Origin: an uncultured Bacilli bacterium
GTDB lineage: Bacteria; Bacillota_I; Bacilli_A; RF39; UBA660
DNA: 64,000 nucleotides
Direction of reading: 5' to 3'
Assembly (NCBI GenBank): GCA_934154785.1
Contig: CAKPGL010000001.1
Coordinates: forward strand, 266,814 to 330,813
Made by a program: the position numbers and the translations under genes. Positions 4,486-64,000 of the stretch are shown here, piece after piece. A model generated the notes under the pieces. The model saw nothing but the letters and a program-made list of their open reading frames with translations, ran no database searches and had not been told where the DNA came from. How positions within the stretch are numbered: the first letter of the stretch is position 1; each line of letters begins with the position of its first letter.

Positions 4486-4872
4486 TTATATTATAGGATT
4501 TTCTACATCTGCCACTTGACCTTCATTAGTAGGGTTAAGCACGATATATAAAGTTATAATAGCGGCAATAATAGTTAAGTAAGACGCTGCTATTTGTAGT
4601 TCATAAGGCTTTAAATTTTCTCCTTGTTCTTTAGAAATTTTATATAATGCATAATTGATAATTAAAAATATAATGGCTGTTACTAAAATAAAGGTACGGT
4701 TAAAAACAGATATTTTTTGTGTCTGTTCAGCATTAAATAGTGTTTTTTCACCTTTAATCTCTAATTTTTCGTTATAAAGAAGTAATATAGAAACAATAAT
4801 TTCAATGATGCTAATAACAGATACAATTATTTGAGCATATATAGCAATAATTTCTTTTTCTTCATTACTCAT
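4486..4872 (-). CDS. hypothetical small membrane protein
   Basis: 128-aa ORF with 3-4 hydrophobic helices. Overlaps the upstream minus-strand gene by 8 nt (coupled). Confidence 0.3.
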   Translation of the reverse strand: MSNEEKEIIAIYAQIIVSVISIIEIIVSILLLYNEKLEIKGEKTLFNAEQTQKISVFNRTFILVTAIIFLIINYALYKISKEQGENLKPYELQIAASYLTIIAAIITLYIVLNPTNEGQVADVENPII

Positions 4873-6067
4873 TATATTCTCTTAACTTTTTAATTTCATT
4901 TAGCTCACTTATAGTAACAAATTGAAAACCCTTCTTTTTTAATGTATTTATAATTTCAGGTAGGGCATCCTTAGTTCTTTTATAAGTATCATGCATTAAG
5001 ATTATATCCCCATCTTTAGTATTTCTAGTCGCCCGTTTTATAATTTGTGTTTTATTTTTTAATTTCCAATCTAAAGTATCTACATTCCATAATGTTACTT
5101 CTAAATTTATTTCTTTTCGCATTTCTTTAGGAATATCTCCATAAGAAGGTCTAAATACTTTTGGTAAATATCTAGTATATTCAAATATTACTTCTTGGGT
5201 TTTACTTATTTGATTTTTAATTTCTATTTCATCAAGATGTGCTAACCATTTATGGTTATAGGTATGATTTCCTATTTCATTGCCATTTTCAAGCATTTTA
5301 AGTAAAGTTTCTTGACCATATGGTACCTTATTACCTAAGACAAAAAATGTTGCACAGATACCGTTATCTTTTAAAATATCAAGTATCTCATTTGTGTATT
5401 TACTAGGACCATCATCAAATGTTAGTGTTACTATAGGTTTATTAATATCTATAGTTTTTTCTTCTTTTTTAATACTATTTATATTATCTACATCTAATTT
5501 ATTTTTTTCATTTATTACAAAATTAAATTTAATATCTTCTAGAGGAATTTGAATTAAATATTCTTTTTTACTTAAATTAATGTAGAAGGTTAAATAATTT
5601 TTTCCAATATAATATTTATCTAAGTTAACACTATTATTTATTTTTTTATTGTATTTTGCTTTAAACTCTTTTTTTATGTTAGTAATTAGTTCTTTTTTAT
5701 TTAAAATGTCACCTATATCTATAAATTTATTATTATTTTTATCAAATAAATATGTATATATTTTTTCCTCTTTTTTATCTATAAATGTAGTTGCTTTAAT
5801 TATAATAGAAATATAATTTTCATTTATTATTTGGTATTCAAAGTCTATATTTAGTTCGGAGTCTTCTTTTTTTGAATTATTAAATTCATTTTTTATATGA
5901 TTTATATCTTTGCTAATAGCGTTATCTAATTCAAATATTCCAAAAACAGGGTATTCGATTATTGAAAACTCTTTATCTTTATTAATAGAAGTATGAATAT
6001 AATTATACTTTTCTTTTGTACAACCAGTAAAAGTAAGTAACACTAATAATATTAATAACTTTTTCAT
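4865..6067 (-). CDS. lipoprotein with C-terminal NodB-type polysaccharide deacetylase domain
   Basis: Lipobox LTFTGC at the N-terminus. C-terminal TFDDGP...HTYNH...LMHD motifs of the carbohydrate esterase 4 (NodB) family. Confidence 0.6.
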   Translation of the reverse strand: MKKLLILLVLLTFTGCTKEKYNYIHTSINKDKEFSIIEYPVFGIFELDNAISKDINHIKNEFNNSKKEDSELNIDFEYQIINENYISIIIKATTFIDKKEEKIYTYLFDKNNNKFIDIGDILNKKELITNIKKEFKAKYNKKINNSVNLDKYYIGKNYLTFYINLSKKEYLIQIPLEDIKFNFVINEKNKLDVDNINSIKKEEKTIDINKPIVTLTFDDGPSKYTNEILDILKDNGICATFFVLGNKVPYGQETLLKMLENGNEIGNHTYNHKWLAHLDEIEIKNQISKTQEVIFEYTRYLPKVFRPSYGDIPKEMRKEINLEVTLWNVDTLDWKLKNKTQIIKRATRNTKDGDIILMHDTYKRTKDALPEIINTLKKKGFQFVTISELNEIKKLREYNE

Positions 6068-6211
6068 ACCATCACCTTATTAATCTTATTCAAATAATCA
6101 TTTTAAATATGCTTGATAACAATTAATTATTTCTATATTTCTTAGTTAAAGTAAACATTTAATACTTCATTTTTGGAATATAATAAGGTGAATTTAGAGA
6201 GGAGGTATCAT

Positions 6212-6556
6212 ATGAATGGATTAATTCCTTCAAATTTATTAGATATTTTAATTTCTAGTACAGTTTTAGGTGTAATAGTCATGGCTATAATTCAAAAATT
6301 TAAAACGTTTGAATGTATTAATAATAGTTGTTATATATGGTTACTTAATATAATATTATCACTAGGCTTGGCAATACCATTTTCTATGTGCTTTTATAAC
6401 TATGATTTATTAACTAGTTTTTGGGTTGGAATATTCTCATTTGCGGAGGCTCCAACCATATATGACTGGCTAAAAAAACAAAACTTAATTGGTACAAAAG
6501 TAAATGTTTTTGAAAAAGAAAATAAAGAAGAAAAAAGTGAAAATCTAAAAAACTAA
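6212..6556 (+). CDS. hypothetical membrane protein
   Basis: ORF with 3 predicted TM helices. Start placed at ATG 6212, preceded by GAGGAGG; the ORF-track start at 6173 has no RBS. Confidence 0.3.
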   Translation: MNGLIPSNLLDILISSTVLGVIVMAIIQKFKTFECINNSCYIWLLNIILSLGLAIPFSMCFYNYDLLTSFWVGIFSFAEAPTIYDWLKKQNLIGTKVNVFEKENKEEKSENLKN

Positions 6557-6661
6557 ATTATTAAAAAACAACAAAAAAAGTAATTTTTCCAAAAAAGCGA
6601 ACATTACCGAAAATGACAATATTCCTTTATAAAATAAGGATAAATTGCTGTTTATATAACT

Positions 6662-6710
6662 AAAAGTTTATTTTAAAAAAATAAACTTTTTTTAGTTTTT
6701 TAAAAAACTA
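6662..6710. terminator. two adjacent perfect AT-only palindromes (13-bp stem hairpin and 18-bp palindrome)
   Basis: AAAAGTTTATTTT-aaa-AAAATAAACTTTT, then TAGTTTTTTAAAAAACTA, followed by T/A runs. Bidirectional terminator-like. Confidence 0.4.
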
Positions 6711-6806
6711 AATTTTTTAAAAAATATTTTTTTGCTATTTTTGTTGATATATAAGGGCAAACTATATACTACCGTTTTTTGTATCAAAAAAAGTCGAAAA
6801 AAAGCA

Positions 6807-6835
6807 TTGACTAATGAATTTTTATGATATACAAT
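6807..6835 (+). promoter_or_regulatory. sigma-A type promoter for nrdD
   Basis: TTGACT-17-TACAAT with a TG two nt upstream (extended -10-like). The ORF-track ATG at 6824 lies inside it. Confidence 0.45.
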
Positions 6836-6859
6836 TTAGGTGTAAAAAGTAGGAGAGAG

Positions 6860-9181
6860 ATGTATATGAACAAGACTGAAGAACTATTAGAAAATTTAAC
6901 TGTTGTTAAAAGAGACGGTAAAAAAGTTTCTTTTAATGGTACAAAAATTGCTGTAGCAATCAAAAAAGGCTTTGACAGCATTCCTAAAGTATATGATGAC
7001 GATGAAGAAGAAAAATCAGTATATACTGAAAAAGATATTCAAAAAGTTTATCAATCTGTAATTAATCGCATTGAAAAAGATTATAAAGATAGTGAAAAAA
7101 TTAAGATTGAAGAAATTCAAGATATTATTGAAGAGCAATTAAAAAAATTAAAATATGACGATGTATATGAATCTTTTTCAGAATATCGTGAGAGAAGAGC
7201 TCAATCTCGTGAAATGTTTATGGATGATAAAAAAAGACATAAATTTTTAAAAACCCTAGAAGGTTTAGGATTAAAATCCGCTAGTGAAGATGACACTAAA
7301 AGAGAAAATGCTAATGTAGATGGTGATACCGCAATGGGAACCATGCTACAATATGGTAGTACAGTTTCTAAAGAATTTGCTAAATCATACTTGATGAAGA
7401 AAAAATATTCTGATGCTCATGATGATGGTGATATTCATATTCATGATATGGACTTCTTACCAATGGGTACTACAACTTGTATGCAAATTGATTTGGAAAA
7501 ATTATTTAAAGGTGGTTTTTCTACGGGTCATGGACATTTAAGAGAACCAAATGATATTATGTCTTATACTGCTTTAGCAGCGATAGCTGTTCAGTCAGAT
7601 CAAAATGATCAACATGGTGGACAAAGTATTCCAGCTTTTGATTATTATATGGCACCTGGAGTTTTAAAAACATTTAAGAAGCAATTTAAACAACTAATTG
7701 CGGATTATCTAGATTATTCTGAATTTGGTAATTTTATTTGTATGAATACCATTGTTAAAGAAATAGATAAATTAGAAAGTATTGATGTTGATTTATCAAT
7801 CTTTGATAGAGTTTGTAAAGATTCAGATGAAGTAAAAAGATTATTTAAGTTAAGTTATGAAAAAGCTTTACAAAAAACAGACCGTATTACTTATCAAGCG
7901 ATGGAAGCATTTGTTCATAATTTAAATACAATGCATTCTAGAGCTGGAGCTCAAGTACCATTTTCTTCTATTAACTTTGGTACTGATACTTCTAGTGAAG
8001 GTAGAATGGTTATGAAAAACTATTTACTTGCTGTAGATGCGGGCCTTGGTCATAATGAAACACCAATATTCCCAATATCTATTTTTAAAATAAAAGAAGG
8101 GGTAAACTATAATCCAGAAGACCCTAACTATGATTTATTTAAACTTTCTTGTAAAGTATCCGCTAAAAGATTATTCCCTAATTTCTCATTCATGGATTCA
8201 CCATTTAATAAACAATATTATAAAGGTGATTACAAAACAGAAGTATGTTACATGGGATGTCGTACTAGAGTAATGGGCAATGTTGTAGATCCTGATAAAG
8301 CAGTTACTCCAGGACGTGGTAATCTATCATTTACATCTATTAACTTACCAAGACTTGGTATTAAACATGGTATAGTTCTTGGAAATAATGAAAAAACAGA
8401 TTTAAAAGGTTTCTATGCAGAACTTGATGATTTGATGGATTTAGTTAAAGATCAATTACTAGAAAGATTTGAAATTCAATGTAATAAAAGAGTTTATAAC
8501 TTCCCATTCTTATTAGGACAAGGTGTTTGGATAGACTCTGAAAAATTAAAACCAACTGATAGATTAAGAAAAGTATTAAAACATGGTACTTTATCAATTG
8601 GATTTATTGGTTTAGCAGAGTGCTTAAAAGCATTAACTGGTAAACATCATGGTGAAGACGAAAAATCTGCTAAATTAGGACTTGAAATAATTAAACATAT
8701 GCGTCAAAGATGTGATGAATATGCAGAGAAATATAATTTGAATTTTACGTTATTAGCAACACCTGCTGAAGGATTATCTGGAAGATTTGTTAATATAGAT
8801 AAAGCTGTATATGGAAAGATAAAAGGTGTTACAGATAGACCTTATTATACTAACTCATTCCATATCCCAGTTTACTTCCATATTTCTATAGCAAATAAAA
8901 TAAAATTAGAGGCACCTTATCATGAACTTACAAATGCTGGACATATTTCTTATATTGAATTAGATGGTGATCCTAGTAAGAATGTTGAAGCATTTGAAAA
9001 AATTGTTCGTATGATGAAAGAAAATAATATGGGATATGCCGCTATTAACCATCCAGTTGATAGAGACCCTGTATGTGGTTACGTAGGTGTAATTGGTGAT
9101 GTTTGTCCAGGTTGTGGCAGACGTGCTAATGAAGCTGTTAGTGTTGAAAAGTTACATAGTTTAAGTTGCGATTGTAAATAA
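6860..9181 (+). CDS. nrdD: anaerobic ribonucleoside-triphosphate reductase (class III RNR), catalytic body ending in the Zn-ribbon and lacking the glycyl-radical segment
   Basis: RBS AGGAGAGAG then ATG 6860/6866. C-terminus INHPVDRDPVCGYVGVIGDVCPGCG...SVEK aligns to the E. coli NrdD Zn-ribbon INHPVDRCHECGFTGE...CPKCG...SVTR. The ORF stops (TAA 9179-9181) exactly where RVCGYLG...FNAGK would follow. Confidence 0.9.
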   Translation: MYMNKTEELLENLTVVKRDGKKVSFNGTKIAVAIKKGFDSIPKVYDDDEEEKSVYTEKDIQKVYQSVINRIEKDYKDSEKIKIEEIQDIIEEQLKKLKYDDVYESFSEYRERRAQSREMFMDDKKRHKFLKTLEGLGLKSASEDDTKRENANVDGDTAMGTMLQYGSTVSKEFAKSYLMKKKYSDAHDDGDIHIHDMDFLPMGTTTCMQIDLEKLFKGGFSTGHGHLREPNDIMSYTALAAIAVQSDQNDQHGGQSIPAFDYYMAPGVLKTFKKQFKQLIADYLDYSEFGNFICMNTIVKEIDKLESIDVDLSIFDRVCKDSDEVKRLFKLSYEKALQKTDRITYQAMEAFVHNLNTMHSRAGAQVPFSSINFGTDTSSEGRMVMKNYLLAVDAGLGHNETPIFPISIFKIKEGVNYNPEDPNYDLFKLSCKVSAKRLFPNFSFMDSPFNKQYYKGDYKTEVCYMGCRTRVMGNVVDPDKAVTPGRGNLSFTSINLPRLGIKHGIVLGNNEKTDLKGFYAELDDLMDLVKDQLLERFEIQCNKRVYNFPFLLGQGVWIDSEKLKPTDRLRKVLKHGTLSIGFIGLAECLKALTGKHHGEDEKSAKLGLEIIKHMRQRCDEYAEKYNLNFTLLATPAEGLSGRFVNIDKAVYGKIKGVTDRPYYTNSFHIPVYFHISIANKIKLEAPYHELTNAGHISYIELDGDPSKNVEAFEKIVRMMKENNMGYAAINHPVDRDPVCGYVGVIGDVCPGCGRRANEAVSVEKLHSLSCDCK

Positions 9182-29518: not shown

Positions 29519-31501
29519 ATGAGAATAAAAAAAATTATTAAAAAAATAATAGGTGAAAACAAAATAATTAAGTATCATAAAGTTAATTCTTTGTATAATG
29601 ATTCCAATATATTAAAAAAATTTGTATTAATAAAAAATATTAAGGTTTATACTAGTACTAATTTTTCTAGAATCCTAGTTGATTCAAAAGAAAATATATT
29701 ATTTTCCGAACATTATGCTTACTTTGTAGATTTTAAATATTTAATAAAGTATACTGATACATTAAATAAAAATATGACACCAGATTATAGTATTATTTTA
29801 GAAAATAGTTTAAACGACTTAAAAGAAAAATTTAAGGGAAATTCTACCGAAACTGCATTTATCTTGGAATTAGAAAACTATATCGATACATATATTAATA
29901 AAATATGTAGTTACAATATTAAAAACAAAAATAACATTATTAAATATATTGAAAACATAAAAACAAAAAAATGTAAAAGTTTTATAGAGGCTATTCAACG
30001 TATTTTATTTTTTAATCAACTATTTTGGCAATTTGGATATAATTTATGTGGCTTAGGTAGAATAGATTTTTTATTAGATTATTATTATGAAAAAGATAAA
30101 AAGCAAAAGAAAATAGATGAAAATGAAACTAGAGGTTTAATTCAAGAATTTTATTATTTGTTGCACCAATACTACAATGAAAAAAGCAATTGTTTAATTG
30201 GTGATACTGGTCAAATTATAGTTGTAGGAGGCATGGATAAAAATAATGTAAATTTTGAAAATGATTTAACTTTATTTTTGCTAGAGGAATTAAAAAAATT
30301 TAATAAACCAGAACCTAAAATATTTTTAAGAGTTAATAAAGATACATCTAACAAAATATTAGAGACTGCTATTTCTTGTATTGCTAGTGGCATCGGGTCT
30401 CCTTTAATATCAAATGATAAAATTGTAATTCCTAAATTAATAAATTTTGGATATGATGCTTCAGATACTTGGAATTATGTGCCTGCAGCATGTTGGGAAC
30501 CATCAATTTGTGGAAATTCAATAGATTTAAACAACAATTTCATTATAAATTTGTTGGAACCATTAAAAGACTTAATTAAAGAAAACGAAAACTTTACATT
30601 AGAAAAAATAGAAGACATTTATATAAATAATTTAATAACATATCTTGATACAATGATACAAAAGCATCGTGTTATTAATTACGATAAACAACCATACTTA
30701 TCACTTTTTATAAAAGATTGTATTAATAACAAAGCAATGATTTCTGCTGAAATTATAAAATATAAAAACGTTGGTTTTACGATGATTGGACTACCAAATG
30801 TTGTTAATAGCATTCTAAATATTGAAACAATTATTAGTAAAAAAATAATTAGTGTTTCGGAATTGATTTTGGCTAAAAAAAATAATTTTCAAGAAGAATA
30901 TATATTAGATATATTAAAAAACAATAATTCAAATGGCTTTGGTTCAAGTAATGAACACGCTATAGAATTAACAAATAAAATAATCAATACTGTTTCTACA
31001 ACTTTAGATAAATATCAAACAAATTATGGTGGTAAATTTAAGTTTGGTTTAAGTTCACCTTCATATGTAGAAATCGGTAAAAAGACTTTAGCTACTTATG
31101 ATGGTAGAAAGAACTATGAACCATTAGGAAATCATATTTCATCACTATATAACAACTATTTAGATTTAATGGAATTTGCTAGTAAAATAAAATATCCTAA
31201 AAATTGTATAAATGGTAATGTAGTAGATTTTATAATTAATACATCTTTTATAGAAAATAATATGGAAAAATTTACAAAATATATAAAGGCATATTTAAAT
31301 AGAAATATTTATCAATTACAAATAAATGTACTTGATAGTAAAACTTTAATGGCTGCAAAAGCTAATCCAGAGTTATATAAAAATCTAATTGTCAGAGTTT
31401 GGGGATTTAGTGCTTATTTTAATGATTTACCAGAAGAGTATAAGGATATTATTATAAAAAGAGCTATTAGTGCCGAAAGGAATTATATTGATAATGAATA
31501 A
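29519..31501 (+). CDS. compact glycyl radical enzyme (PFL-like fold; eliminase/dehydratase-type C-x-E active site)
   Basis: C-terminus NLIVRVWGFSAYFNDLPEEYKDIIIKRAISAE aligns to the PFL radical motif [23 protein letters not shown]. Also GLGRIDFLLDYYY, SGIGSPLISND, active-site loop VPAACWEPSICG (Cys-x-Glu), TMIGLPN, SSPSY...YDGR. Only 660 aa, so shorter at the N-terminus than typical ~800-aa GREs. Confidence 0.8.
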   Translation: MRIKKIIKKIIGENKIIKYHKVNSLYNDSNILKKFVLIKNIKVYTSTNFSRILVDSKENILFSEHYAYFVDFKYLIKYTDTLNKNMTPDYSIILENSLNDLKEKFKGNSTETAFILELENYIDTYINKICSYNIKNKNNIIKYIENIKTKKCKSFIEAIQRILFFNQLFWQFGYNLCGLGRIDFLLDYYYEKDKKQKKIDENETRGLIQEFYYLLHQYYNEKSNCLIGDTGQIIVVGGMDKNNVNFENDLTLFLLEELKKFNKPEPKIFLRVNKDTSNKILETAISCIASGIGSPLISNDKIVIPKLINFGYDASDTWNYVPAACWEPSICGNSIDLNNNFIINLLEPLKDLIKENENFTLEKIEDIYINNLITYLDTMIQKHRVINYDKQPYLSLFIKDCINNKAMISAEIIKYKNVGFTMIGLPNVVNSILNIETIISKKIISVSELILAKKNNFQEEYILDILKNNNSNGFGSSNEHAIELTNKIINTVSTTLDKYQTNYGGKFKFGLSSPSYVEIGKKTLATYDGRKNYEPLGNHISSLYNNYLDLMEFASKIKYPKNCINGNVVDFIINTSFIENNMEKFTKYIKAYLNRNIYQLQINVLDSKTLMAAKANPELYKNLIVRVWGFSAYFNDLPEEYKDIIIKRAISAERNYIDNE

Positions 31502-32369
31502 CAAACTTATTGTTAATTCTATTCAGAGATCTTGTTTTCATGATGGACCAGGTATAAGAACAACTGTGTTTTTACATTCTTGTTCTTTAAAATGTCCTTG
31601 GTGTTCAAATCCTGAATGTAGCATGACAAACTACAGGTATGTAATTAACAATCGTTGTCGTAAATCTAATGGCAAATGTATTTATAATATAGATTGTCCT
31701 AGTACTAAGAATAAAAAATCAAACGATGATTTGAAAAGTTTTATAGATAAGTGCCCAGTTTTAGCTATAGAAAATAATTTTAGACCATATTCTATTGACG
31801 AATTAAAAGAAACTTTAGTTCAAGATAAATTTTTATTTGACACAGAGGGCGGGGTAACATTTTCTGGAGGAGAACCATTATTACAAAGTTATAATCTTGG
31901 TGAACTTATTAAAGAATTAAAAAAAGAGCAAATCAATATTGCCGTTGAAACATGTTTATTTGTGAAACATGAAAATTTATTGTCTGTAGTTGATGATATT
32001 GATTTATTTATAGTTGATTTAAAAATTTTGGATGCTAAAGAATGTTCCAAGATATTAGGTGGAGATCTTAAAGAGTTTTTAAATAATATAGAAATTTTAT
32101 TTGCTAAAAAGAAGGATATCGTTTTTCGTGTGCCACTTATTAAACCATATATTACAAATAAAAATAATATGTCGCTTATATATAAATTTCTTACTAGATA
32201 TAAACCTTTAAAAGTTGAGTTATTAAAAGGTCATAATTTAGCCAAAGAAAAATACCAAAAATTAGGTATTGAATACAAATTAGTTTCAACTATAAACGAA
32301 ACAGAAATAAATGATATTTTAAAAGAAATGACCAACATAGGAATAAACGCTACTATTATAGATTTTTAA
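31494..32369 (+). CDS. glycyl-radical enzyme activating protein (radical SAM, with extra ferredoxin-like Cys cluster)
   Basis: SIQRSCFHDGPGIRTTVFLHSCSLKCPWCSNPE (CxxxCxxC). Additional cysteines C-x12-C-x6-C-x5-C...C. Start ATG 31494 overlaps the GRE stop; the ORF track begins at 31470. Confidence 0.8.
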   Translation: MNNKLIVNSIQRSCFHDGPGIRTTVFLHSCSLKCPWCSNPECSMTNYRYVINNRCRKSNGKCIYNIDCPSTKNKKSNDDLKSFIDKCPVLAIENNFRPYSIDELKETLVQDKFLFDTEGGVTFSGGEPLLQSYNLGELIKELKKEQINIAVETCLFVKHENLLSVVDDIDLFIVDLKILDAKECSKILGGDLKEFLNNIEILFAKKKDIVFRVPLIKPYITNKNNMSLIYKFLTRYKPLKVELLKGHNLAKEKYQKLGIEYKLVSTINETEINDILKEMTNIGINATIIDF

Positions 32370-35689: not shown

Positions 35690-36853
35690 ATGTTTAAAAG
35701 AAAAGCTAATTCGGCTAAATTAGATACTGGCAACTTAAATGAAGTAATTACATTATCGAAAGCCATTTTAAAAATACTTTTTGTAGTTATGATTATTGCG
35801 GGAGTCTATGGTTTAACAATTTTATTAAAAGAGTTAGGAATAACTAAATTCTTTGTAGAATTACTAAAGATAATTTCACCTTTATTTATAGGTATTGTAA
35901 TAGCGTGGTTATTTAATCCTCTTATGAAGTTCTTTTCTAAAAAGGGAATTCGTAGAGGACTTGGTGCTGCTATAATATATATTGCTTTAAGTGCTATAAT
36001 TTTTCTTTTAATAAAAGCTATAATTCCACTTATGTTTGAACAAATTAATGATTTAGTAAGTACTATACCATCAACATTAAAGGGAATTGTTAATTGGATT
36101 AGTGACTTATTTAATAAAGTTAGTAATAATTCTAATGTTGATTTAACTAGCGTTAAAACAGAAATTATTTCTAAAATAGAAAACTATGGTATGAATATTG
36201 CTAGTTCTCTTCCAGAAGTTATGGTTAATACAGTAAAATCATTCTTTTCTGGTATTGGTACATTTTTAATAGGAGCAATTATTGGTTTTTTCTTACTTAT
36301 TAGTTTTGATGGAACTGATAAAGTAATGGATTTTTTACCAGATAAAATACATAATAATGTAACATCTTTATTTAGTAAAATAGAAGACTCTTTAAGAAGA
36401 TATGTCCAGGGAACTTTAACACTATCTACTTTAGTATTTGTTGTAAGTACAATAGGATTTATGATAAGTGGTTTAAAATCTGCTTTATTATTTGGATTAT
36501 TTTGTGGCATCACCAATATTATTCCTTATGTTGGTCCTTACTTAGGAGCGGCACCAGCATTAATAGTTGGTTTTTCCCAAGGAACACCAATAGGTATTGG
36601 GGTCCTAATAACAGTAGTTATAGTTCAAACTATTGAAGGTAATATATTAAATCCAATTGTAATGAGTAAAACTATGAAACTACATCCTGTTACAATTATA
36701 ATAGGATTATTAGTATTTGAACATTTCTGGGGTATTCTAGGAATGATTCTTGCAACACCGATAATTGCGACAATTAAAGTTATTTTTGAATACTTTAATG
36801 AAAAATATGGTATAATAAATAAGAAATTTGAACAAAACGTTGAAGAAGAATAG
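35690..36853 (+). CDS. AI-2E family transporter (UPF0118/PerM-like)
   Basis: 387 aa, about 8 TM helices. PALIVGFSQG...ILNPIVMSKTMKLHPV pattern typical of the AI-2E family. Confidence 0.65.
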   Translation: MFKRKANSAKLDTGNLNEVITLSKAILKILFVVMIIAGVYGLTILLKELGITKFFVELLKIISPLFIGIVIAWLFNPLMKFFSKKGIRRGLGAAIIYIALSAIIFLLIKAIIPLMFEQINDLVSTIPSTLKGIVNWISDLFNKVSNNSNVDLTSVKTEIISKIENYGMNIASSLPEVMVNTVKSFFSGIGTFLIGAIIGFFLLISFDGTDKVMDFLPDKIHNNVTSLFSKIEDSLRRYVQGTLTLSTLVFVVSTIGFMISGLKSALLFGLFCGITNIIPYVGPYLGAAPALIVGFSQGTPIGIGVLITVVIVQTIEGNILNPIVMSKTMKLHPVTIIIGLLVFEHFWGILGMILATPIIATIKVIFEYFNEKYGIINKKFEQNVEEE

Positions 36854-36867
36854 TACATAATTATTAA

Positions 36868-37030
36868 TTGATAGAGAGCTTATGGTTGATGGAAATAAGT
36901 AATTAATATTATGGAAGCTACTTTAGAGTGTAGTTAAATACTACCGGTGTAAACCGTTATAATAATTAAGTTTAATTAGGATGGTACCGCGGCTTTTTCG
37001 TTCCTAGAAATAGTGGCGGTTTTTCTTATT
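36868..37030 (+). promoter_or_regulatory. T-box riboswitch leader, probable Ala (GCU) specifier
   Basis: AGAGAG box (36873-78). Specifier-loop context GAAGCUACUUUAGAG (GCU at 36917-19) is parallel to the thrS leader UUACUACUUAAGAG. Conserved T-box AAUUAGGAUGGUACCGCGG (36974-36992). Downstream U-rich terminator-like segment GGCGGTTTTTCTT. Confidence 0.75.
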
Positions 37031-37047
37031 TTAAAGGAGGACGACTT

Positions 37048-37599
37048 ATGGAATATATTGATAAAAAACCAAAGATTTATGTGATTTCAGGTAAAGCAAA
37101 AAGTGGTAAAGATACGATTGCTAATATAATTTGTAATTACTATAAAGATAAAAAATGTAAAAAGATATCTTATGCCTACTATTTAAAAGAATATATTAAA
37201 AATATATTTGATTGGGATGGCAAAGAAGAAACTAAACCAAGAGATCTATTACAGAGTATTGGTATTGATTTACTACAAAAAAAGATTGATGAACATTTTT
37301 TAATAGATAGAGTTGTAGAAGATATAAAGGTTTATTCTTACTTTTATGATGTAATAATTATAACTGACGCTAGACTGGTAGATGAAATAGAAATACCTAA
37401 AAATAAATTTTCTAATGTTACAACTATTAGAATAAATAACAATAGTGATAATGATTTAACACTAGAACAGAAAAAACATATTACAGAAACAGCTTTGGAT
37501 AATTATACTAATTTTGATTATGTAATAAATAATACAAGTGATTATAATGCTTTAAAACAAAGTGTTAATAAAATTTTGGAGGTAAATCATGAAAAATAA
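37048..37599 (+). CDS. deoxynucleoside-monophosphate kinase-like P-loop protein (phage T4 gp1-like)
   Basis: KIYVISGKAKSGKDTIANII vs T4 gp1 KLIFLSGVKRSGKDTTADFI. LLQSIGIDLL vs LMQALGTDLI. IIITDARLVDE vs IVPDTRQDHE. KHITETAL vs THITEAGL. Confidence 0.55.
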   Translation: MEYIDKKPKIYVISGKAKSGKDTIANIICNYYKDKKCKKISYAYYLKEYIKNIFDWDGKEETKPRDLLQSIGIDLLQKKIDEHFLIDRVVEDIKVYSYFYDVIIITDARLVDEIEIPKNKFSNVTTIRINNNSDNDLTLEQKKHITETALDNYTNFDYVINNTSDYNALKQSVNKILEVNHEK

Positions 37600-38143
37600 T
37601 ATTATAGCAATAGTAGGTATGTGTGGTGCTGGTAAATCTGTTGCGTCAGATATTCTAGAAAATAAAGGGTACAAAAAAGTATACTTTGGTGGCGTTACCA
37701 TGGAAAAATTAAAAGAAGAAGGATTAGAAATTAATCCAGAAAATGAACGTATGATGCGTGAGCGTCTTAGAAAAGAATTAGGTATGGGAGCATTCGCTAA
37801 AATATTATTACCAAGAATAAAAGAATACGCTAAAGAAGGTAACACCGTACTTGATGGTTTGTATTCTTGGGATGAACTTAAAATATTAAAAGATGAATTT
37901 GGTGATGATTTAACTTTAATAGCGGTAATTGCTGATAAAAATATTCGTTATGAAAGATTATCCAAAAGGGAAATTCGTCCATTTACTAAAGATGAGGCTA
38001 TAAAAAGAGATTTAACAGAAATAGAAAATGTTGCCAAAGCCGGACCAATTGCGTATGCAGACTATTACATAGATAATAATCATGACTTAGAAAGTTATAA
38101 AAATAGATTAAATAATATTTTAGATATTATTGGAGGTAAATAA
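37589..38143 (+). CDS. P-loop nucleoside/nucleotide kinase-like protein
   Basis: IIAIVGMCGAGKSV Walker A. Arg-rich lid-like segment RYERLSKREIRPF. Overlaps the neighbours by 11 and 14 nt (coupled). Confidence 0.5.
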   Translation: MKNNIIAIVGMCGAGKSVASDILENKGYKKVYFGGVTMEKLKEEGLEINPENERMMRERLRKELGMGAFAKILLPRIKEYAKEGNTVLDGLYSWDELKILKDEFGDDLTLIAVIADKNIRYERLSKREIRPFTKDEAIKRDLTEIENVAKAGPIAYADYYIDNNHDLESYKNRLNNILDIIGGK

Positions 38144-38144
38144 A

Positions 38145-39902
38145 ATGAATTTAAAAGATTTATATATAAATTTCTTTATAAGTAAAGGACACAAACAAAT
38201 ACCTAGTGCTCCAGTTATACCAGAAAACGATCCCTCAGTACTTTTTAATACTGCGGGAATGCAACCATTAGTACCTTATTTAATGGGACAACCCCATCCT
38301 TATGGCACTAGACTTGTTGATTATCAAAAATGTATTCGTACTAATGATTTAGAAAGTATTGGAGATACTACACATCATACTTTCTTTGAAATGTTAGGTA
38401 ATTGGAGTTTAGGTGATTACTTTAAAAAAGAGAGTATTAGTTGGAGTTTTGAATTTTTAACTAAAGTATTAAATATGCCAGTAGAAAGACTTGCTGTAAC
38501 AGTATTTGCTGGTAATGATAAAATAGAAGAAGATAAAACCTCTATTGAAATATGGAAAAGTTTGGGCATTAAAGAAAGTAGAATTGCTAAAACTAAAGAT
38601 GATAATTTTTGGATAGCAGGTGAAACTGGTCCTTGTGGCCCAGATTCAGAAATATTCTATTTCCGTAGTGATGATGAAATACCTGAAGTATTTGACCCAG
38701 AAGATTCTCGTTGGGTAGAAATTTGGAATAACGTATTTATGCAATATAATAAAGATGCATCTGGTAATGTTACAGAACTACCAAAGAAAAACGTTGATAC
38801 TGGTATGGGAGTAGAAAGAGTAACAGCAGTATTGGAAGGTGTTAATGATAACTACATGACTTCTATTTGGAAAGATGTTATTTCTAAAATAGAAGAACTT
38901 TCTCATAAAAATTATAATGATTCTGAAGAAATTAAAAAGAGTATGCGTATTATAGCGGATCATATTCGTACTGCAGTATTTATTTCTGCTGATCCTGCAG
39001 GAATCAAACCATCTAATACTGATCAAGGATATATTCTAAGAAGACTTATTAGACGTGCTATTAGACATGCTAAAAAATTAAATATTGATGAGAATAGTAA
39101 TTGGGAACAACAAATAGCGTTAATCATTTTAGATAAATATGCTAAGTATTATCATGAACTTGTTGATAATAAAGATGTTGTTTTAGAAGTACTTACTAAT
39201 GAAAAAAATAAATTTAATCGTACTCTAGAAAAAGGTTTAAAAGAGTTTGAAAGAATTACTAAGAATATTACTGATGGTAAATTAAATAAAGATTTAGCAT
39301 TTAAATTATATGATACTTATGGTTTTCCAATTGAACTTACAGTAGAACTAGCTAGTGAACTTGGAATCAAAGTAGATGTAGAAGGCTTTAAAGAAAAATT
39401 TAAGGCTCATCAAGAATTATCTCGTGCAGGAGCAGAACAAAAATTTAAAGGTGGTCTTGCTAGTACTGGTGAAATAGAAACTAAATATCATACTGCAACA
39501 CACTTACTAAATGCCGCTTTAAAAGTAGTAGTTAATAAAGATGTACATCAAAAGGGTAGTAATATTACTTCTGAAAGAATGCGTTTTGACTTCTCTTGTG
39601 ATCATAAATTAACGGATGAAGAAAAGAAAGCGACAGAAGATTTAGTAAATAAATGGATTAGTGAAGGAATACCAGTAGTAGTTACAGAAATGAAAAAGGA
39701 AGACGCTGTTAAATCTGGAGCGGAATGTATGTTTATTGAAAAATATCCAGATATTGTAACAGTATATTCAATAGGTGATGTATCAAAAGAACTTTGCGGT
39801 GGACCACATGTAAAAAATACAAATGAACTAGGACATTTTAAAATTCAAAAAGAAGAAGCTAGTAGTGCTGGCGTTAGAAGAATTAAGGCTATTTTAGAGT
39901 AG
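38145..39902 (+). CDS. alaS: alanyl-tRNA synthetase, short form (aminoacylation plus editing domains, no C-Ala domain)
   Basis: GGAGG RBS then ATG 38145. FISKGHKQIPSAPVIPENDPSVLFNTAGMQP, QKCIRTNDLESIGDTTHHTFFEMLGNWSLGDYFK, editing-domain HTATHLLNAALK and CGGPHV motifs. 585 aa, whereas a typical AlaRS is about 870 aa. Confidence 0.85.
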   Translation: MNLKDLYINFFISKGHKQIPSAPVIPENDPSVLFNTAGMQPLVPYLMGQPHPYGTRLVDYQKCIRTNDLESIGDTTHHTFFEMLGNWSLGDYFKKESISWSFEFLTKVLNMPVERLAVTVFAGNDKIEEDKTSIEIWKSLGIKESRIAKTKDDNFWIAGETGPCGPDSEIFYFRSDDEIPEVFDPEDSRWVEIWNNVFMQYNKDASGNVTELPKKNVDTGMGVERVTAVLEGVNDNYMTSIWKDVISKIEELSHKNYNDSEEIKKSMRIIADHIRTAVFISADPAGIKPSNTDQGYILRRLIRRAIRHAKKLNIDENSNWEQQIALIILDKYAKYYHELVDNKDVVLEVLTNEKNKFNRTLEKGLKEFERITKNITDGKLNKDLAFKLYDTYGFPIELTVELASELGIKVDVEGFKEKFKAHQELSRAGAEQKFKGGLASTGEIETKYHTATHLLNAALKVVVNKDVHQKGSNITSERMRFDFSCDHKLTDEEKKATEDLVNKWISEGIPVVVTEMKKEDAVKSGAECMFIEKYPDIVTVYSIGDVSKELCGGPHVKNTNELGHFKIQKEEASSAGVRRIKAILE

Positions 39903-39926: not shown

Positions 39927-39955
39927 TTGACAAAGAACTCAAATAATGTTATACT
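39927..39955 (+). promoter_or_regulatory. sigma-A type promoter for engB
   Basis: TTGACA-17-TATACT. Confidence 0.5.
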
Positions 39956-43538: not shown

Positions 43539-45014
43539 ATGGAAAAAACAGAAATTATAAAAAGTATTACAGAACGTACAGGGGGAGAATTATATTTAGG
43601 TGTAGTTGGTGCTGTACGTACAGGTAAGTCTACTTTTATAAAAAAGTTTATTGAGAATTTAGTTGTGCCTAATATAGAAGATGAGTATGAAAGAAAAAGA
43701 GCCTTAGATGAAATACCACAAAGTGCTCAAGGTAAAACAATTATGACTACTGAACCTAAGTTTGTACCAAGTAATGCTGCTAGTATAAAAATAGATGACT
43801 TTACTACTAGTGTTCGTTTAGTAGATTGTGTAGGATATGTTATACCGGAAGCAAAAGGTTATGAAGATGATAATGGTCCAAGAATGGTTAAGACTCCTTG
43901 GTATGATGAGGAAATTCCTTTTGTAGAAGCTGCAGAAATAGGAACTGAAAAAGTTATAAAAGATCATTCAAGTATTGGTATTGTTGTTACTACCGATGGT
44001 TCTATTGGTGAAATATCACGTAATAGTTACGTAGAAGCTGAAGAAAGAGTAGTATCGGAATTAAAAGAAATTGGTAAGCCATTTATAGTATTATTAAATT
44101 CAACACATCCAATGTTACCAGAAACAGAACGTTTAGCAGAAAGTCTAAAAGATAATTATGGTGTTCCTGTTTTACCTGTAAGTGTTGAAAACATGGTTGA
44201 AAAAGATATATATTCTATTTTACGAGAAGCTTTATATGAATTCCCAGTATTAGAAGTAAAAGTTAATATGCCAGAATGGATAGCGTGTTTAAATCCAGAT
44301 AATTGGTTAAAGAAAGTATATATTGAAAAAATAAGAGAAAGTGTTATTGAAGTAGATAAACTACGCGATGTAGAGCACATAACAGCTCACTTTAGTGACT
44401 GTGAATATATTAGTAAAGCTTACTTATCTGATGTTGATACATCTACTGGTGAAGTAACAGTTACATTACAAGCTCCAGATGATTTATATAATAGGGTATT
44501 AAAAGAAATAATTGGTGTCGATATTACAAGTAAAACACAATTATTAAATATGTTCCAAGAATATAATGAAGCTAAGACTGAGTATGATCAGATTAAAACA
44601 GCATTAAAAATGGTTAAAACTACTGGTTACGGTGTTGCATCTCCAACACTATCGGATATGAAACTTGATACTCCAGAAATAATAAAACAGGGTAGCCGTT
44701 ATGGAATTCGTCTTAAAGCAGTAGCACCTTCTATACATATGGTTAGGGTAGATGTTGAATCAACATTCGAACCGATTATTGGTTCTGAATTACAAAGTAA
44801 GGAATTAATTAACTATATTATGAAAGACTATGATAATGATGCTGATAGTATTTGGAAAAGTGAAATATTTGGTCGTAGTTTAGACGTTATTGTAAAGGAG
44901 GGTATTCAAGCTAAACTTTCTATGTTACCAGAAAATGCTCGTTATAAATTACAACAAACATTATCTAAATTAGTTAATAAAGGTTCTGGTAATTTAATAG
45001 CGATAGTATTCTAA
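43539..45014 (+). CDS. spoIVA: stage IV sporulation protein A (spore coat morphogenetic ATPase)
   Basis: MEKTEIIKSITERTGGELYLGVVGAVRTGKSTFIKKFIENLVVPNI...IPQSAQGKTIMTTEPKFVP is near-identical in pattern to B. subtilis SpoIVA. 491 aa. Confidence 0.85.
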   Translation: MEKTEIIKSITERTGGELYLGVVGAVRTGKSTFIKKFIENLVVPNIEDEYERKRALDEIPQSAQGKTIMTTEPKFVPSNAASIKIDDFTTSVRLVDCVGYVIPEAKGYEDDNGPRMVKTPWYDEEIPFVEAAEIGTEKVIKDHSSIGIVVTTDGSIGEISRNSYVEAEERVVSELKEIGKPFIVLLNSTHPMLPETERLAESLKDNYGVPVLPVSVENMVEKDIYSILREALYEFPVLEVKVNMPEWIACLNPDNWLKKVYIEKIRESVIEVDKLRDVEHITAHFSDCEYISKAYLSDVDTSTGEVTVTLQAPDDLYNRVLKEIIGVDITSKTQLLNMFQEYNEAKTEYDQIKTALKMVKTTGYGVASPTLSDMKLDTPEIIKQGSRYGIRLKAVAPSIHMVRVDVESTFEPIIGSELQSKELINYIMKDYDNDADSIWKSEIFGRSLDVIVKEGIQAKLSMLPENARYKLQQTLSKLVNKGSGNLIAIVF

Positions 45015-58660: not shown

Positions 58661-59002
58661 GGGGCTGTTCAGGTTTCGACAGATATAGATGACTATGAAT
58701 TGCAAGTCGAAGGTACGCGTTAAGTACAAAAAATAATAACTGGAAACAGAAATCAATTAGCTTTCGCTTAATAGAAATTTAGAAGGCGCTTCTTATTATC
58801 ATTTTCTACGGGGTATTAAGAGGCTCGATTTAGTAGAATATATTTATACTAATGCTTATAGGTATAAATGAATAACATAAGCTAACTAATTTATTGGTTG
58901 TTGATTACTTTATAAATTAGAACATTTATTAATCAACTAAACTTGTAGATATTTATAGAAAGATATATTTGGACAGGAGTTCAATTCTCCTCAGCTCCAC
59001 CA
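58661..59002 (+). ncRNA. ssrA: tmRNA (SsrA)
   Basis: 5' end GGGGCTGTTCAGGTTTCGACAG. 3' tRNA-like end GGACAGGAGTTCAATTCTCCTCAGCTCCACCA. Internal tag reading frame ...ACU GGA AAC AGA AAU CAA UUA GCU UUC GCU UAA UAG gives a tag ending ...NRNQLAFA with a double stop. Confidence 0.9.
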
Positions 59003-63086: not shown

Positions 63087-63139
63087 ATTAAACGTGATAA
63101 AATAAAAAACGAAAGCGAAGATTAAGACAAGATTATATA

Positions 63140-63310
63140 AAGAGTTTTTTAGAGAGTTTGTGGTCGGTGAAAACAAATAAATGAATTATATAGTTACTAC
63201 TTAAGAGCAGGACTCGAAAGATGTTCCCGGTAATACCGTTATAAAAATTAAGACCAAAGTAGGATGGTACCGCGCATATTCGCTCCTTATATATTTATAA
63301 GGAGTTTTTT
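63140..63310 (+). promoter_or_regulatory. T-box riboswitch leader with Thr (ACU) specifier
   Basis: AGAGAG (63151-56). Specifier UUACUAC (ACU at 63196-98). T-box AGGAUGGUACCGCG (63261-74). Perfect terminator CTCCTTATA-tat-TTATAAGGAG followed by a T6 run (63284-63310). Confidence 0.8.
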
Positions 63311-63334
63311 ATTTATAAGAAAAGAGGAATGAAA

Positions 63335-64000
63335 ATGGAAAATATTAAAGAAAATGAAAAATTAAATGTTTTAAACCATTCTTGTGCTCATTTACTTGCA
63401 CATGCTGTAAAACATTTATATCCTAATGCTAAATTTTGGGTAGGACCTGTAATAGAAGAAGGATTTTACTATGATATTGATTTAGATGATGAAGTTATTA
63501 AAGAAGAAGATTTACCTAAAATAGAAAAAGAAATGAAAAAAATATCTAAAGATAATAAACTTATTAAACGTATAGAACTTACTAAAGAAGAAGCTTTAGA
63601 TATGTTTAAAGATGATCCTTATAAAATAGATTTAATTAGTAGAATGGATGAAAATGATACAATAATTTCTGCTTATAAACAAGAAGATTTTATTGACTTA
63701 TGTCGTGGACCACATATGGATTCTACTAAACAAATAAAATACTTTAAACTATTAAAAGTAAGTGGTGCTTACTGGAAGAATGATGCTAAAAATAAAATGT
63801 TACAAAGAATATATGGTGTATGCTTTGAAACAGAGGAAGATTTAAATAAATATTTAGAAGAGTTAGAGGATCGTAAAAGTAGAGATCACAGAAAAATAGG
63901 TAAAGACTTAGATATATTTATGACTCACGAATTAGTTGGACAAGGTTTACCTTTATGGCTTCCAAATGGAGCATTTGTTTTTCATGAATTAGAAGAATAT
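63335..64000 (+). CDS. thrS: threonyl-tRNA synthetase, 5' part (runs off the window)
   Basis: AAGAGGA RBS then ATG 63335. MENIKENEKLNVLNHSCAHLLAHAVKHLYPNAKFWVGPVIEEGFYYD is the canonical ThrRS N-terminus. Confidence 0.9.
   Translation, partial: MENIKENEKLNVLNHSCAHLLAHAVKHLYPNAKFWVGPVIEEGFYYDIDLDDEVIKEEDLPKIEKEMKKISKDNKLIKRIELTKEEALDMFKDDPYKIDLISRMDENDTIISAYKQEDFIDLCRGPHMDSTKQIKYFKLLKVSGAYWKNDAKNKMLQRIYGVCFETEEDLNKYLEELEDRKSRDHRKIGKDLDIFMTHELVGQGLPLWLPNGAFVFHELEEY

Follow-up and report, generated by a model that had tools for sequence, protein, structure and literature searches.

The question raised by this locus is why two nucleotide-kinase-like genes, here called K1 and K2, stand between a T-box leader and alaS, the logical target of such a switch. 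The locus lies in a stretch of 64,000 nucleotides (the window), on whose forward strand a T-box with an alanine specifier and an intrinsic terminator precedes K1, K2 and alaS, in a gene order that recurs in relatives and with products that fall into recognizable families. The earlier note on this DNA had offered three explanations: a phage-derived insertion captured in the leader, a coupling of alanyl-tRNA status to (d)NMP phosphorylation, or an unrecognised modifying pair. The observation is real but mostly ordinary: we hold with reasonable confidence that an Ala T-box controls a K1-K2-alaS operon in which resident kinases occupy an old slot and are co-regulated incidentally.

The leader and its predicted transcription unit

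The leader runs from Stem I to the antiterminator (36831–37008, + strand). It aligns to the full-length Rfam model RF00230 (positions 1–219) with 108.7 bits, above the gathering score of 93 (E 4.3e-23), and was recovered at E 4e-51 by nhmmer with an alignment of related leaders; the canonical T-box proposed earlier is thus confirmed by the covariance model. Its proposed start at 36868 is too far downstream: the region does hold the T-box, but Stem I starts near 36837 and extends over the final codons and the stop (36851–36853) of an AI-2E family transporter gene (35690–36853, + strand; Pfam PF01594, E 9.5e-64). Most relatives, too, have this gene as the upstream neighbor of their kinase slot.

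The conserved elements follow in order on the + strand: AGAGAG, the Stem I AG-bulge motif (36873–36878); downstream of it the distal loop GGUUGAUGG (36884–36892); the specifier context GAAGCUACUUUAGAG (36914–36928); and the T-box sequence AAUUAGGAUGGUACCGCGG (36974–36992), with its UGGU bulge at 36982–36985. The AGAGAG, T-box and specifier strings quoted in the earlier note are all present at these positions. In the cmscan alignment the specifier codon is GCU (Ala; 36917–36919), in the context GAA-GCU-A (36914–36920) with a purine after the codon, and it matches the downstream alaS; GCU is kept in seven homologous leaders (among them L011, L006, L001, L022, L104, L108), so that the alanine specificity proposed earlier stands. 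The parallel drawn with the thrS leader holds as well: the second T-box in the window (63109–63290; 95.1 bits) has the specifier ACU and lies 5' of thrS. SpoIVA is also encoded within the window. The discriminator of tRNA-Ala is A73, with which the last U of the UGGU bulge would pair. As a rule, the UGGN bulge of a T-box pairs with the tRNA discriminator (PMC7778990).

Antiterminator and terminator are mutually exclusive. The intrinsic terminator (36986–37032, + strand) consists of a hairpin (36986–37020; pairings ACCGC/GCGGU, GCU/AGU, and UUUC/GAAA) followed by UUUUUCUUAUUUU, with the U-run at 37021–37032; the hairpin folds at -16.3 kcal/mol (z -3.49; none of 200 shuffles was as good), and its 5' arm (ACCGC) is common to the competing antiterminator, which is weak (-4.9 kcal/mol). 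This terminator was missed by a consensus terminator scan because of bulges in the hairpin, and was revealed by folding. Uncharged tRNA-Ala is predicted to stabilize the weak antiterminator and allow read-through; otherwise the hairpin and U-run would halt transcription just before the operon. Transcripts leaving the AI-2E gene would meet the same terminator. Immediately 5' of the leader no convincing promoter was found; the best upstream candidate (ATGAAA-17-TATAAT, 36674–36702) lies within the AI-2E gene. A good -35/-10 pair, 30–40 nt upstream of the leader, is confined to L001 and L022, two loci that lack a preceding AI-2E gene; none was found 5' of the leader in the window, L011, L104, or L108.

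K1 (183 aa; 37048–37599, + strand) is preceded by the Shine-Dalgarno sequence AAAGGAGG (37033–37040). K2 (184 aa; 37589–38143, + strand) overlaps K1 by 11 nt, and alaS (585 aa; 38145–39902, + strand) follows K2 after a 1-nt gap, with the Shine-Dalgarno sequence GGAGG at 38133–38137. Both of these junctions had been described before. A further overlap of 14 nt had been listed, which requires TTG 38130 as the start of alaS; homologues start at MNLKDLY and ATG 38145 has a GGAGG 7 nt ahead of it, and the 1-nt gap is therefore the true K2/alaS junction. Between 37048 and 39902 no terminator-like site was found on the + strand, and promoter-like sites were at chance level (22 found, 22.5 expected), although a weak internal promoter may exist in sequence of 27% GC. 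Since the genes overlap or abut, with no terminator and no above-chance promoter between them, the three-gene unit described earlier is retained, and K1-K2-alaS would be read as one transcript.

The products of the three genes

The third gene is alaS, as had been recognized. Its product scores 808 bits against NCBIfam NF002436 (cut-off 529; model positions 5–593 of 595) and has the Pfam domains tRNA-synt_2c and tRNA_SAD only; no C-Ala/DHHA1 domain was found by Pfam in the 585 residues. It is a short-form alanine-tRNA ligase with catalytic, tRNA-recognition and editing domains, without C-Ala. As the synthetase gene comes third here, tools that use the first downstream gene mislabel the T-box specificity of such leaders.

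K1 belongs, by its profiles and its modelled fold, to the family of the T4 gp1 dNMP kinase and animal phosphomevalonate kinase. It matches Pfam PF21448 (DNMK; E 9e-12, 45.5 bits, cut-off 27.1) and PHROG phrog_139 (E 1.2e-32 over residues 6–179); its PDB profile matches are 1DEK (2e-9) and the phosphomevalonate kinase (PMK) 7XND (6e-9), and the best Foldseek matches of its AF2 model (pLDDT 86) are 7XND, 3CH4, and 1DEK. The "strong similarity" to T4 gene 1 claimed in the earlier note is sound at the level of the family but overstated for the pair, where phmmer gives E 1e-3 and about 20% identity to 1DEK. Alignments to 1DEK show a P-loop, RxLxQxxGxD, DxR, and HITE in common with T4 gp1, and residues S14–K21, R65, L68, Q69, G72, D107, R109, H144, T146, and E147 are invariant across 42 K1 homologues. 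A phosphomevalonate kinase is allowed by the fold and less likely on these motifs (a single Arg in DxR; HITE as in T4 gp1). K1 is accordingly described as a predicted enzyme of the dNMP-kinase family, with a putative dNMP substrate.

K2 is a predicted NMP-kinase-fold protein of the archaeal UPF0200 / SSO1041 "AdkA-like" family. It aligns end to end with the solved UPF0200 member SSO1041 (PDB 3LW7/3H0K; E 7e-18, 28% identity), and its AF2 model (pLDDT 90) gives Foldseek TM scores of 0.80–0.86, with an rmsd of 2.6 A to 3LW7; the P-loop nucleotide kinase recognized earlier is in keeping with both. Its Pfam matches are AAA_18 and AAA_17 only, and a homologue is named "dephospho-CoA kinase" in one database. 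K2 did not match the Pfam cytidylate-kinase models (PF02224) and matched the archaeal-type cmk model TIGR02173 only weakly (26.7 bits; cut-off 102); failing the Cmk models, it is at most a functional analogue of Cmk, not a member.

That K2 may be such an analogue follows from its alternation with cmk. In some close relatives (L002, L004, L006, L017, L020, L025) canonical cmk stands exactly where K2 would be, and the two never occur together in the slot across about 35 related loci. The exchange is clean between two species whose AlaRS proteins are 87% identical: the DNA of L003 (CANPYQ01; K2) and L004 (CANQPA01; cmk) aligns at 84–85% identity on either side, right to the borders of the middle gene, which is non-homologous. 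K2 also fills the slot in L015 (GCA_948728675.1). No cmk was found in the 64-kb window. K2 is thus probably a UPF0200-type NMP kinase doing the job of cytidylate kinase; we tentatively suggest that UPF0200, an uncharacterised kinase family, thereby receives its first functional assignment, as a CMP/dCMP kinase analogue. No paper was found in the literature on UPF0200 or SSO1041, nor on a T-box with cytidylate kinase.

The kinase slot in relatives and the predicted control by tRNA-Ala

The comparison covered some 35 related loci of gut MAGs, read as 10-kb stretches. Flanked by the AI-2E transporter gene and alaS, the slot is variable and holds K1, K2, cmk, K1 and K2, K1 and cmk, or nothing. In a K1-based genome search alaS was directly downstream in 11 of 13 loci, and in K2-based look-ups K2 was directly upstream of alaS in all four. 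An AlaS-based metagenome search found K1, cmk, or nothing upstream where AlaS was at least 68% identical, and no slot kinase upstream in other lineages (AlaS below 60% identity). The layout is also found beside a full-length AlaRS of another type (40–44% identity), with K1 upstream of an 898-aa AlaRS in L008 and K2 upstream of an 897-aa AlaRS in L104. Such adjacency with a different AlaRS type could reflect more than inherited synteny. The kinase-alaS order is an old, variable, clade-wide feature of uncultured gut Bacillota, and the slot appears to be prone to recombination. The organism of the window is itself present in human faecal samples.

A GCU T-box is present in roughly a third to half of the distinct loci. 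It precedes K1-K2-alaS in the window, L011, and L108; K1-cmk-alaS in L006; cmk-alaS in L025; K2 and a full-length alaS in L104; and alaS directly in L022. It is absent, with gene order unchanged, from L003-5, L014, L017, L024, L026, L027, L030, and L106. Where it is present it precedes the entire block in every case and never stands between the kinases and alaS; on the AlaS tree the different architectures are intermingled. A scan of 13 K1 loci at the Rfam gathering threshold had given no T-box; this is a threshold effect, as the relatives' leaders, recovered by E-value scans and an nhmmer profile, score 65–92 bits, just under the cut-off of 93.

A recent insertion, by which a phage dNMP-kinase cassette would have come between T-box and alaS, has in its favor that K1 strongly matches a phage dNMP-kinase family (PHROG 139), and that K2 matches both a PHROG of phage "kinase" proteins (E 6e-12) and an anti-phage dCTP deaminase in its kinase-like domain. 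Phage proteins, however, reach at best 26–37% identity to K1, against more than 900 chromosomal homologues at 59–97% identity; the composition of both genes is native (GC and GC3, the latter 0.11–0.16, like those of the neighbors); and no integrase, repeats, or other phage genes were found nearby. The low phage identity and native composition leave a recent insertion unsupported, and K1, K2, or cmk upstream of alaS at the same position throughout the clade, including lineages with full-length AlaRS, speaks against capture in the leader. The recent-passenger reading is largely refuted and is the most improbable of those weighed here. A defence-system role for K2 was considered separately and rejected, since K2 matches no part of the dCTP deaminase beyond the kinase-like domain, and K1 had no PADLOC hit.

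Could the kinases have been placed behind the T-box on purpose, (d)NMP phosphorylation tracking the charging of tRNA-Ala, for instance as a growth-state signal? The recurrence of the T-box-kinase(s)-alaS layout in several diverged lineages, one with full-length AlaRS, and the constant place of the T-box upstream of the kinases would fit such a design, which we nevertheless consider unlikely: many relatives have the same genes without a T-box, in L022 the T-box precedes only alaS, loci with and without a T-box are mixed on the tree, and no physiological logic is known that leads from alanine charging to dNMP or CMP kinases. The coupling suggested earlier therefore survives only trivially, as co-transcription, and is facultative and probably incidental. 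Rather less credible is an action of K1 and/or K2 on tRNA-Ala, AlaRS or its product, as RNA or protein kinases or AlaRS partners, instead of on free nucleotides. Either kinase lies immediately upstream of alaS, often overlapping it, despite the change of AlaRS type (L008, L104); yet either is dispensable from the slot, a plain cmk replaces K2, K1 adjoins pgk-tpi or stands alone in two Clostridium MAGs, and both proteins have ordinary small NMP-kinase folds without an RNA-binding domain. K1 without K2 and K2 without K1 were both found, so that the two are not an obligate pair, and the modifying pair proposed earlier is left unsupported by this and by the interchange of K2 with an ordinary cmk. 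A true functional partnership with alanyl-tRNA synthesis or editing, beyond inherited synteny, is given little credence.

Incidental co-regulation thus remains the favored reading. K1 and K2 would be resident housekeeping nucleotide kinases that tRNA-Ala controls for no other reason than that the T-box precedes all genes of the block; that control looks positional, not a dedicated coupling. Two by-products follow: a predicted function for a UPF0200-type protein as a stand-in for cytidylate kinase, in a family with a solved structure; and a natural series of related operons with and without a T-box, with long or C-Ala-less AlaRS, which could serve to ask what the loss of a T-box costs.

Comparison with known systems

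The T-box adds no new mechanism; it is of the standard transcription-attenuating type, specific for tRNA-Ala. With the alaS T-box leaders of Firmicutes (RF00230; TBDB, PMC7778990) it shares Stem I with AG bulge and distal loop, the GCU specifier followed by a purine, the UGGN bulge, the competing antiterminator and terminator, and a downstream synthetase gene for the cognate amino acid; it differs in that alaS is the third gene, with two kinase genes between, and in that the leader starts on the upstream stop codon without an obvious promoter of its own.

K1 has the P-loop SGK(x)KSGKDT, the R-x-L-(L/M)-Q-x-(I/L)-G-x-D-L block, D-x-R, and HITE of T4 gp1 (1DEK; PF21448; PHROG 139), whereas it is shorter (183 against 241 aa), lacks the insert of about 90 residues that separates the P-loop helix from the NMP-binding block, is equally close to animal phosphomevalonate kinase in sequence and fold, and is chromosomal and clade-conserved, not phage-borne.

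K2 resembles Cmk (PF02224) in its slot position, not in sequence models. The whole of K2 aligns with the kinase-like domain of the anti-phage dCTP deaminase (NCBIfam NF041025, PADLOC dCTPase; E 6.5e-15), which suggests a place for K2 in a cytidine-nucleotide-binding kinase lineage, although it has neither the deaminase domain nor a defence-island context. With the archaeal "adenylate kinase-related protein" SSO1041 it shares the end-to-end alignment and the fold (TM 0.80–0.86); unlike SSO1041, K2 is bacterial, is part of an operon with alaS, and alternates with cmk.

The alanine T-box and the genes that follow it

The leader at 36831–37008 (+ strand) is a full-length match to the T-box model (Rfam RF00230; 108.7 bits, gathering score 93; E 4.3e-23), with the AGAGAG motif at 36873–36878, the specifier context GAAGCUACUUUAGAG at 36914–36928 and the T-box sequence AAUUAGGAUGGUACCGCGG at 36974–36992, all on the + strand. 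The strings quoted in the earlier note were all located in the window, and its assignment of the specifier to alanine holds: the leader reads GAA-GCU-A, an Ala codon with the usual purine after it. The T-box bulge is UGGU; the discriminator of tRNA-Ala is A73, with which the last base of this bulge would pair. Pairing of the last base of UGGN with the tRNA discriminator is the rule as used in TBDB (PMC7778990). In folding, the terminator hairpin at 36986–37020 (−16.3 kcal/mol, z −3.49, no shuffle equally good), followed by UUUUUCUUAUUUU, has its 5′ arm ACCGC in common with a weak antiterminator (−4.9 kcal/mol); the element is of the standard transcription-attenuation form.

Three genes follow on the + strand: the first kinase gene, K1, at 37048–37599 (183 aa; Shine-Dalgarno sequence AAAGGAGG 8 nt upstream); the second, K2, at 37589–38143 (184 aa; 11-nt overlap with K1); and alaS at 38145–39902 (585 aa). 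The alaS start is most likely ATG 38145, leaving a 1-nt gap after K2, because GGAGG precedes it by 7 nt and the homologues begin MNLKDLY; the alternative start TTG 38130 would produce the 14-nt overlap noted earlier. A 12-nt string, TGGAGGTAAAT(C/A), which contains the Shine-Dalgarno sequence and directly precedes the start codon, is common to the K1/K2 (37577–37588) and K2/alaS (38131–38142) junctions. From the leader to the end of alaS, no + strand terminator-like site was found in a terminator scan, and promoter-like sites are no commoner than expected by chance (22, against 22.5); neither signal was found between the kinases and alaS, in keeping with the operon proposed. The sequence TTGACA-17-TATACT with TG at 39927–39955, 3′ of alaS and 5′ of engB, makes a good promoter-like site.

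The leader starts on the stop codon of the AI-2E transporter gene in the window and in four related loci (L011, L108, L006, L104), and the sole promoter-like site 5′ of it is a moderate one inside the AI-2E gene (36674–36702, 130–160 nt upstream); this layout suggests that the T-box terminator may also end frr-orf-AI-2E transcripts from upstream. Loci L001 and L022, without the AI-2E neighbour, have a strong −35/−10 pair 30–40 nt 5′ of the leader. In L104, where the GCU T-box (4793–5010) precedes K2 and a full-length alaS, a GC-rich terminator hairpin is lacking; in its stead a U-rich stretch is paired to the Shine-Dalgarno region AAGAGGAGGA (−11.4 kcal/mol), and control may be translational, not transcriptional.

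Elsewhere in the window are a second T-box (63109–63290; Rfam 95.1 bits; specifier ACU, Thr) 5′ of thrS (63334–64000), which extends past the window end and whose product (N-terminus MENIKENEKLNVLNHSCAHLL) apparently begins at the editing domain, without the N-terminal TGS domain; a tmRNA gene at 58661–59002 (148 bits in Rfam; tag peptide GNRNQLAFA by ARAGORN); a glycyl-radical enzyme and its radical-SAM activase (29519–32369); and SpoIVA (43539–45014), 3′ of engB-orf-der. The source organism is an uncultured gut Bacillota of about 27% GC, with identical proteins in human faecal metagenomes; since it encodes SpoIVA, it probably forms spores, even though some related MAGs are labelled 'Tenericutes'.

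Variation between the AI-2E gene and alaS

Searches begun from K1, AlaS and K2 agree on local gene order. K1 gave 13 loci among species-representative genomes (all of them MAGs from gut; the labels are Bacilli, Tenericutes or Clostridium, and Muribaculaceae for one), with alaS directly downstream in 11; K2 is directly upstream of alaS in all four look-ups. In metagenomes, loci at ≥68% AlaS identity have K1, cmk or nothing upstream, and some 70 loci of other lineages (48–59%) have no kinases there, except for a K1 fragment in L095. The AI-2E-to-alaS region therefore behaves as a slot of variable content: K1-K2 (window, L003, L005, L011, L108; L001 with extra ORFs); K1-cmk (L002, L004, L006, L017); K2 only (L014, L106, L104); cmk only (L025; L020 and L023, where upstream sequence ends at the contig end); K1 only (L007, L010, L024, L026, L027, L030, L008); nothing (L021, L022).

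A GCU-specifier T-box was found in the window, L011, L108, L006, L025, L104, L001 and L022, in each case 5′ of the entire block; many other loci searched have none, and in these the AI-2E gene runs up to or into the first kinase gene. T-box and slot states are interspersed on the AlaS neighbour-joining tree, which implies repeated T-box loss and repeated exchange of slot content.

Several related loci carry further elements: in L017–L019 (one species; 4543–5920; no T-box), the toxin-antitoxin genes mazE-mazF (PemK) together with a Fic-domain gene, inserted after the AI-2E gene and before K1; small ORFs (131, 331, 160 aa) separating alaS from the kinase or cmk gene in L001 (6116–7524) and L023 (550–1032), with N-termini alike by eye (LGFTEE / LGYTEED ... 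IKNI / IRNN); an Rfam RT-14 RNA match in L005 (9639–9776; 53.6 bits against 48.1); and a roughly 150-nt perfect-looking hairpin in L021 (5362–5511), 3′ of alaS and a HIT-family-like ORF, matching plant miRNA precursor models (E 2e-12) and probably a palindromic repeat element.

Origin and control of the kinase genes

The earlier note offered three readings of the kinases. Capture from a phage is not supported: K1's best phage relatives are 26–37% identical, against more than 900 chromosomal homologues at 59–97%; K1 and K2 do not differ from their neighbours in GC or GC3; and the arrangement extends across the clade. Nor is an obligate modifying pair supported, as K1 is found without K2 and K2 without K1, and K1 adjoins pgk-tpi or stands alone in two Clostridium MAGs. 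Coupling to tRNA-Ala charging stands as co-transcription in the T-box-keeping subset, and not beyond it: the T-box is often lost with unchanged gene order and sits directly on alaS in L022, which argues that it is their position that places the kinases under Ala control. The earlier note's condition for a recent passenger has a mixed answer: one relative does have the T-box on alaS alone, but the layout with kinases is of old date and wide occurrence and is no recent passenger. Kinase-alaS adjacency is kept across two AlaRS types, the one feature for which simple synteny accounts less comfortably; a true functional partnership is nevertheless rated improbable. The observation is confirmed and its interpretation partly supported: the element is a regular T-box family member before a lineage-typical kinase-alaS operon.

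Comparison of K1, K2 and AlaRS with known enzymes

K1 passes the cut-off of Pfam PF21448, the T4-gp1-type dNMP kinase family (45.5 bits; cut-off 27.1), and matches PHROG 139 (phage dNMP-kinase; E 1.2e-32). A profile of 42 homologues matches T4 Dnk (1DEK, 2e-9) and animal phosphomevalonate kinases (7XND, 6e-9; 3CH4, 6e-8) about equally, and all three are the top Foldseek matches of the AlphaFold model (pLDDT 86). By motifs (P-loop, RxLLQxIGxDL, single-Arg DxR, HITE), T4 gp1 is nearer to K1 than PMK is, although the long insert of T4 gp1 is missing from K1.

K2 and SSO1041, a UPF0200 protein from Sulfolobus, align end to end (E 7e-18; model pLDDT 90, Foldseek TM 0.80–0.86). K2 also aligns with the kinase-like domain that anti-phage dCTP deaminases carry (E 6.5e-15); it has no match to bacterial Cmk models, and one source labels a homologue 'dephospho-CoA kinase'. 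None of the loci compared has both K2 and cmk in the slot, and some have neither. In two rabbit-gut MAG species, L003 (K1-K2-alaS) and L004 (K1-cmk-alaS), AlaRS is 86.6% and K1 78.9% identical, and DNA is 84–85% identical up to both edges of a non-homologous middle gene (K2, L003 5615–6070; canonical cmk, L004 5615–6168): one cassette has been cleanly exchanged for another, probably through recombination in the conserved flanking DNA. This swap and the homology to the kinase domain of a cytidine-nucleotide enzyme suggest that K2 may perform the cytidylate kinase job. The main value lies in this predicted displacement and in the operons with and without a T-box, which form a natural series.

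The housekeeping AlaRS of the window is the short form (NCBIfam NF002436, 808 bits against 529), with catalytic, tRNA-recognition and editing domains; it stops directly after the last, without C-Ala/DHHA1. At least 598 relatives occur in metagenomes, the best 80 aligning over nearly full length. Full-length AlaRS (897–898 aa; 40–44% identical to that of the window) is encoded at this position too, downstream of one of these kinases, in L008 (K1; alaS 5555–8251) and L104 (K2; alaS 5552–8245). The four-domain AlaRS prototype was still described as conserved throughout biology in 2023 (PMC10036535).
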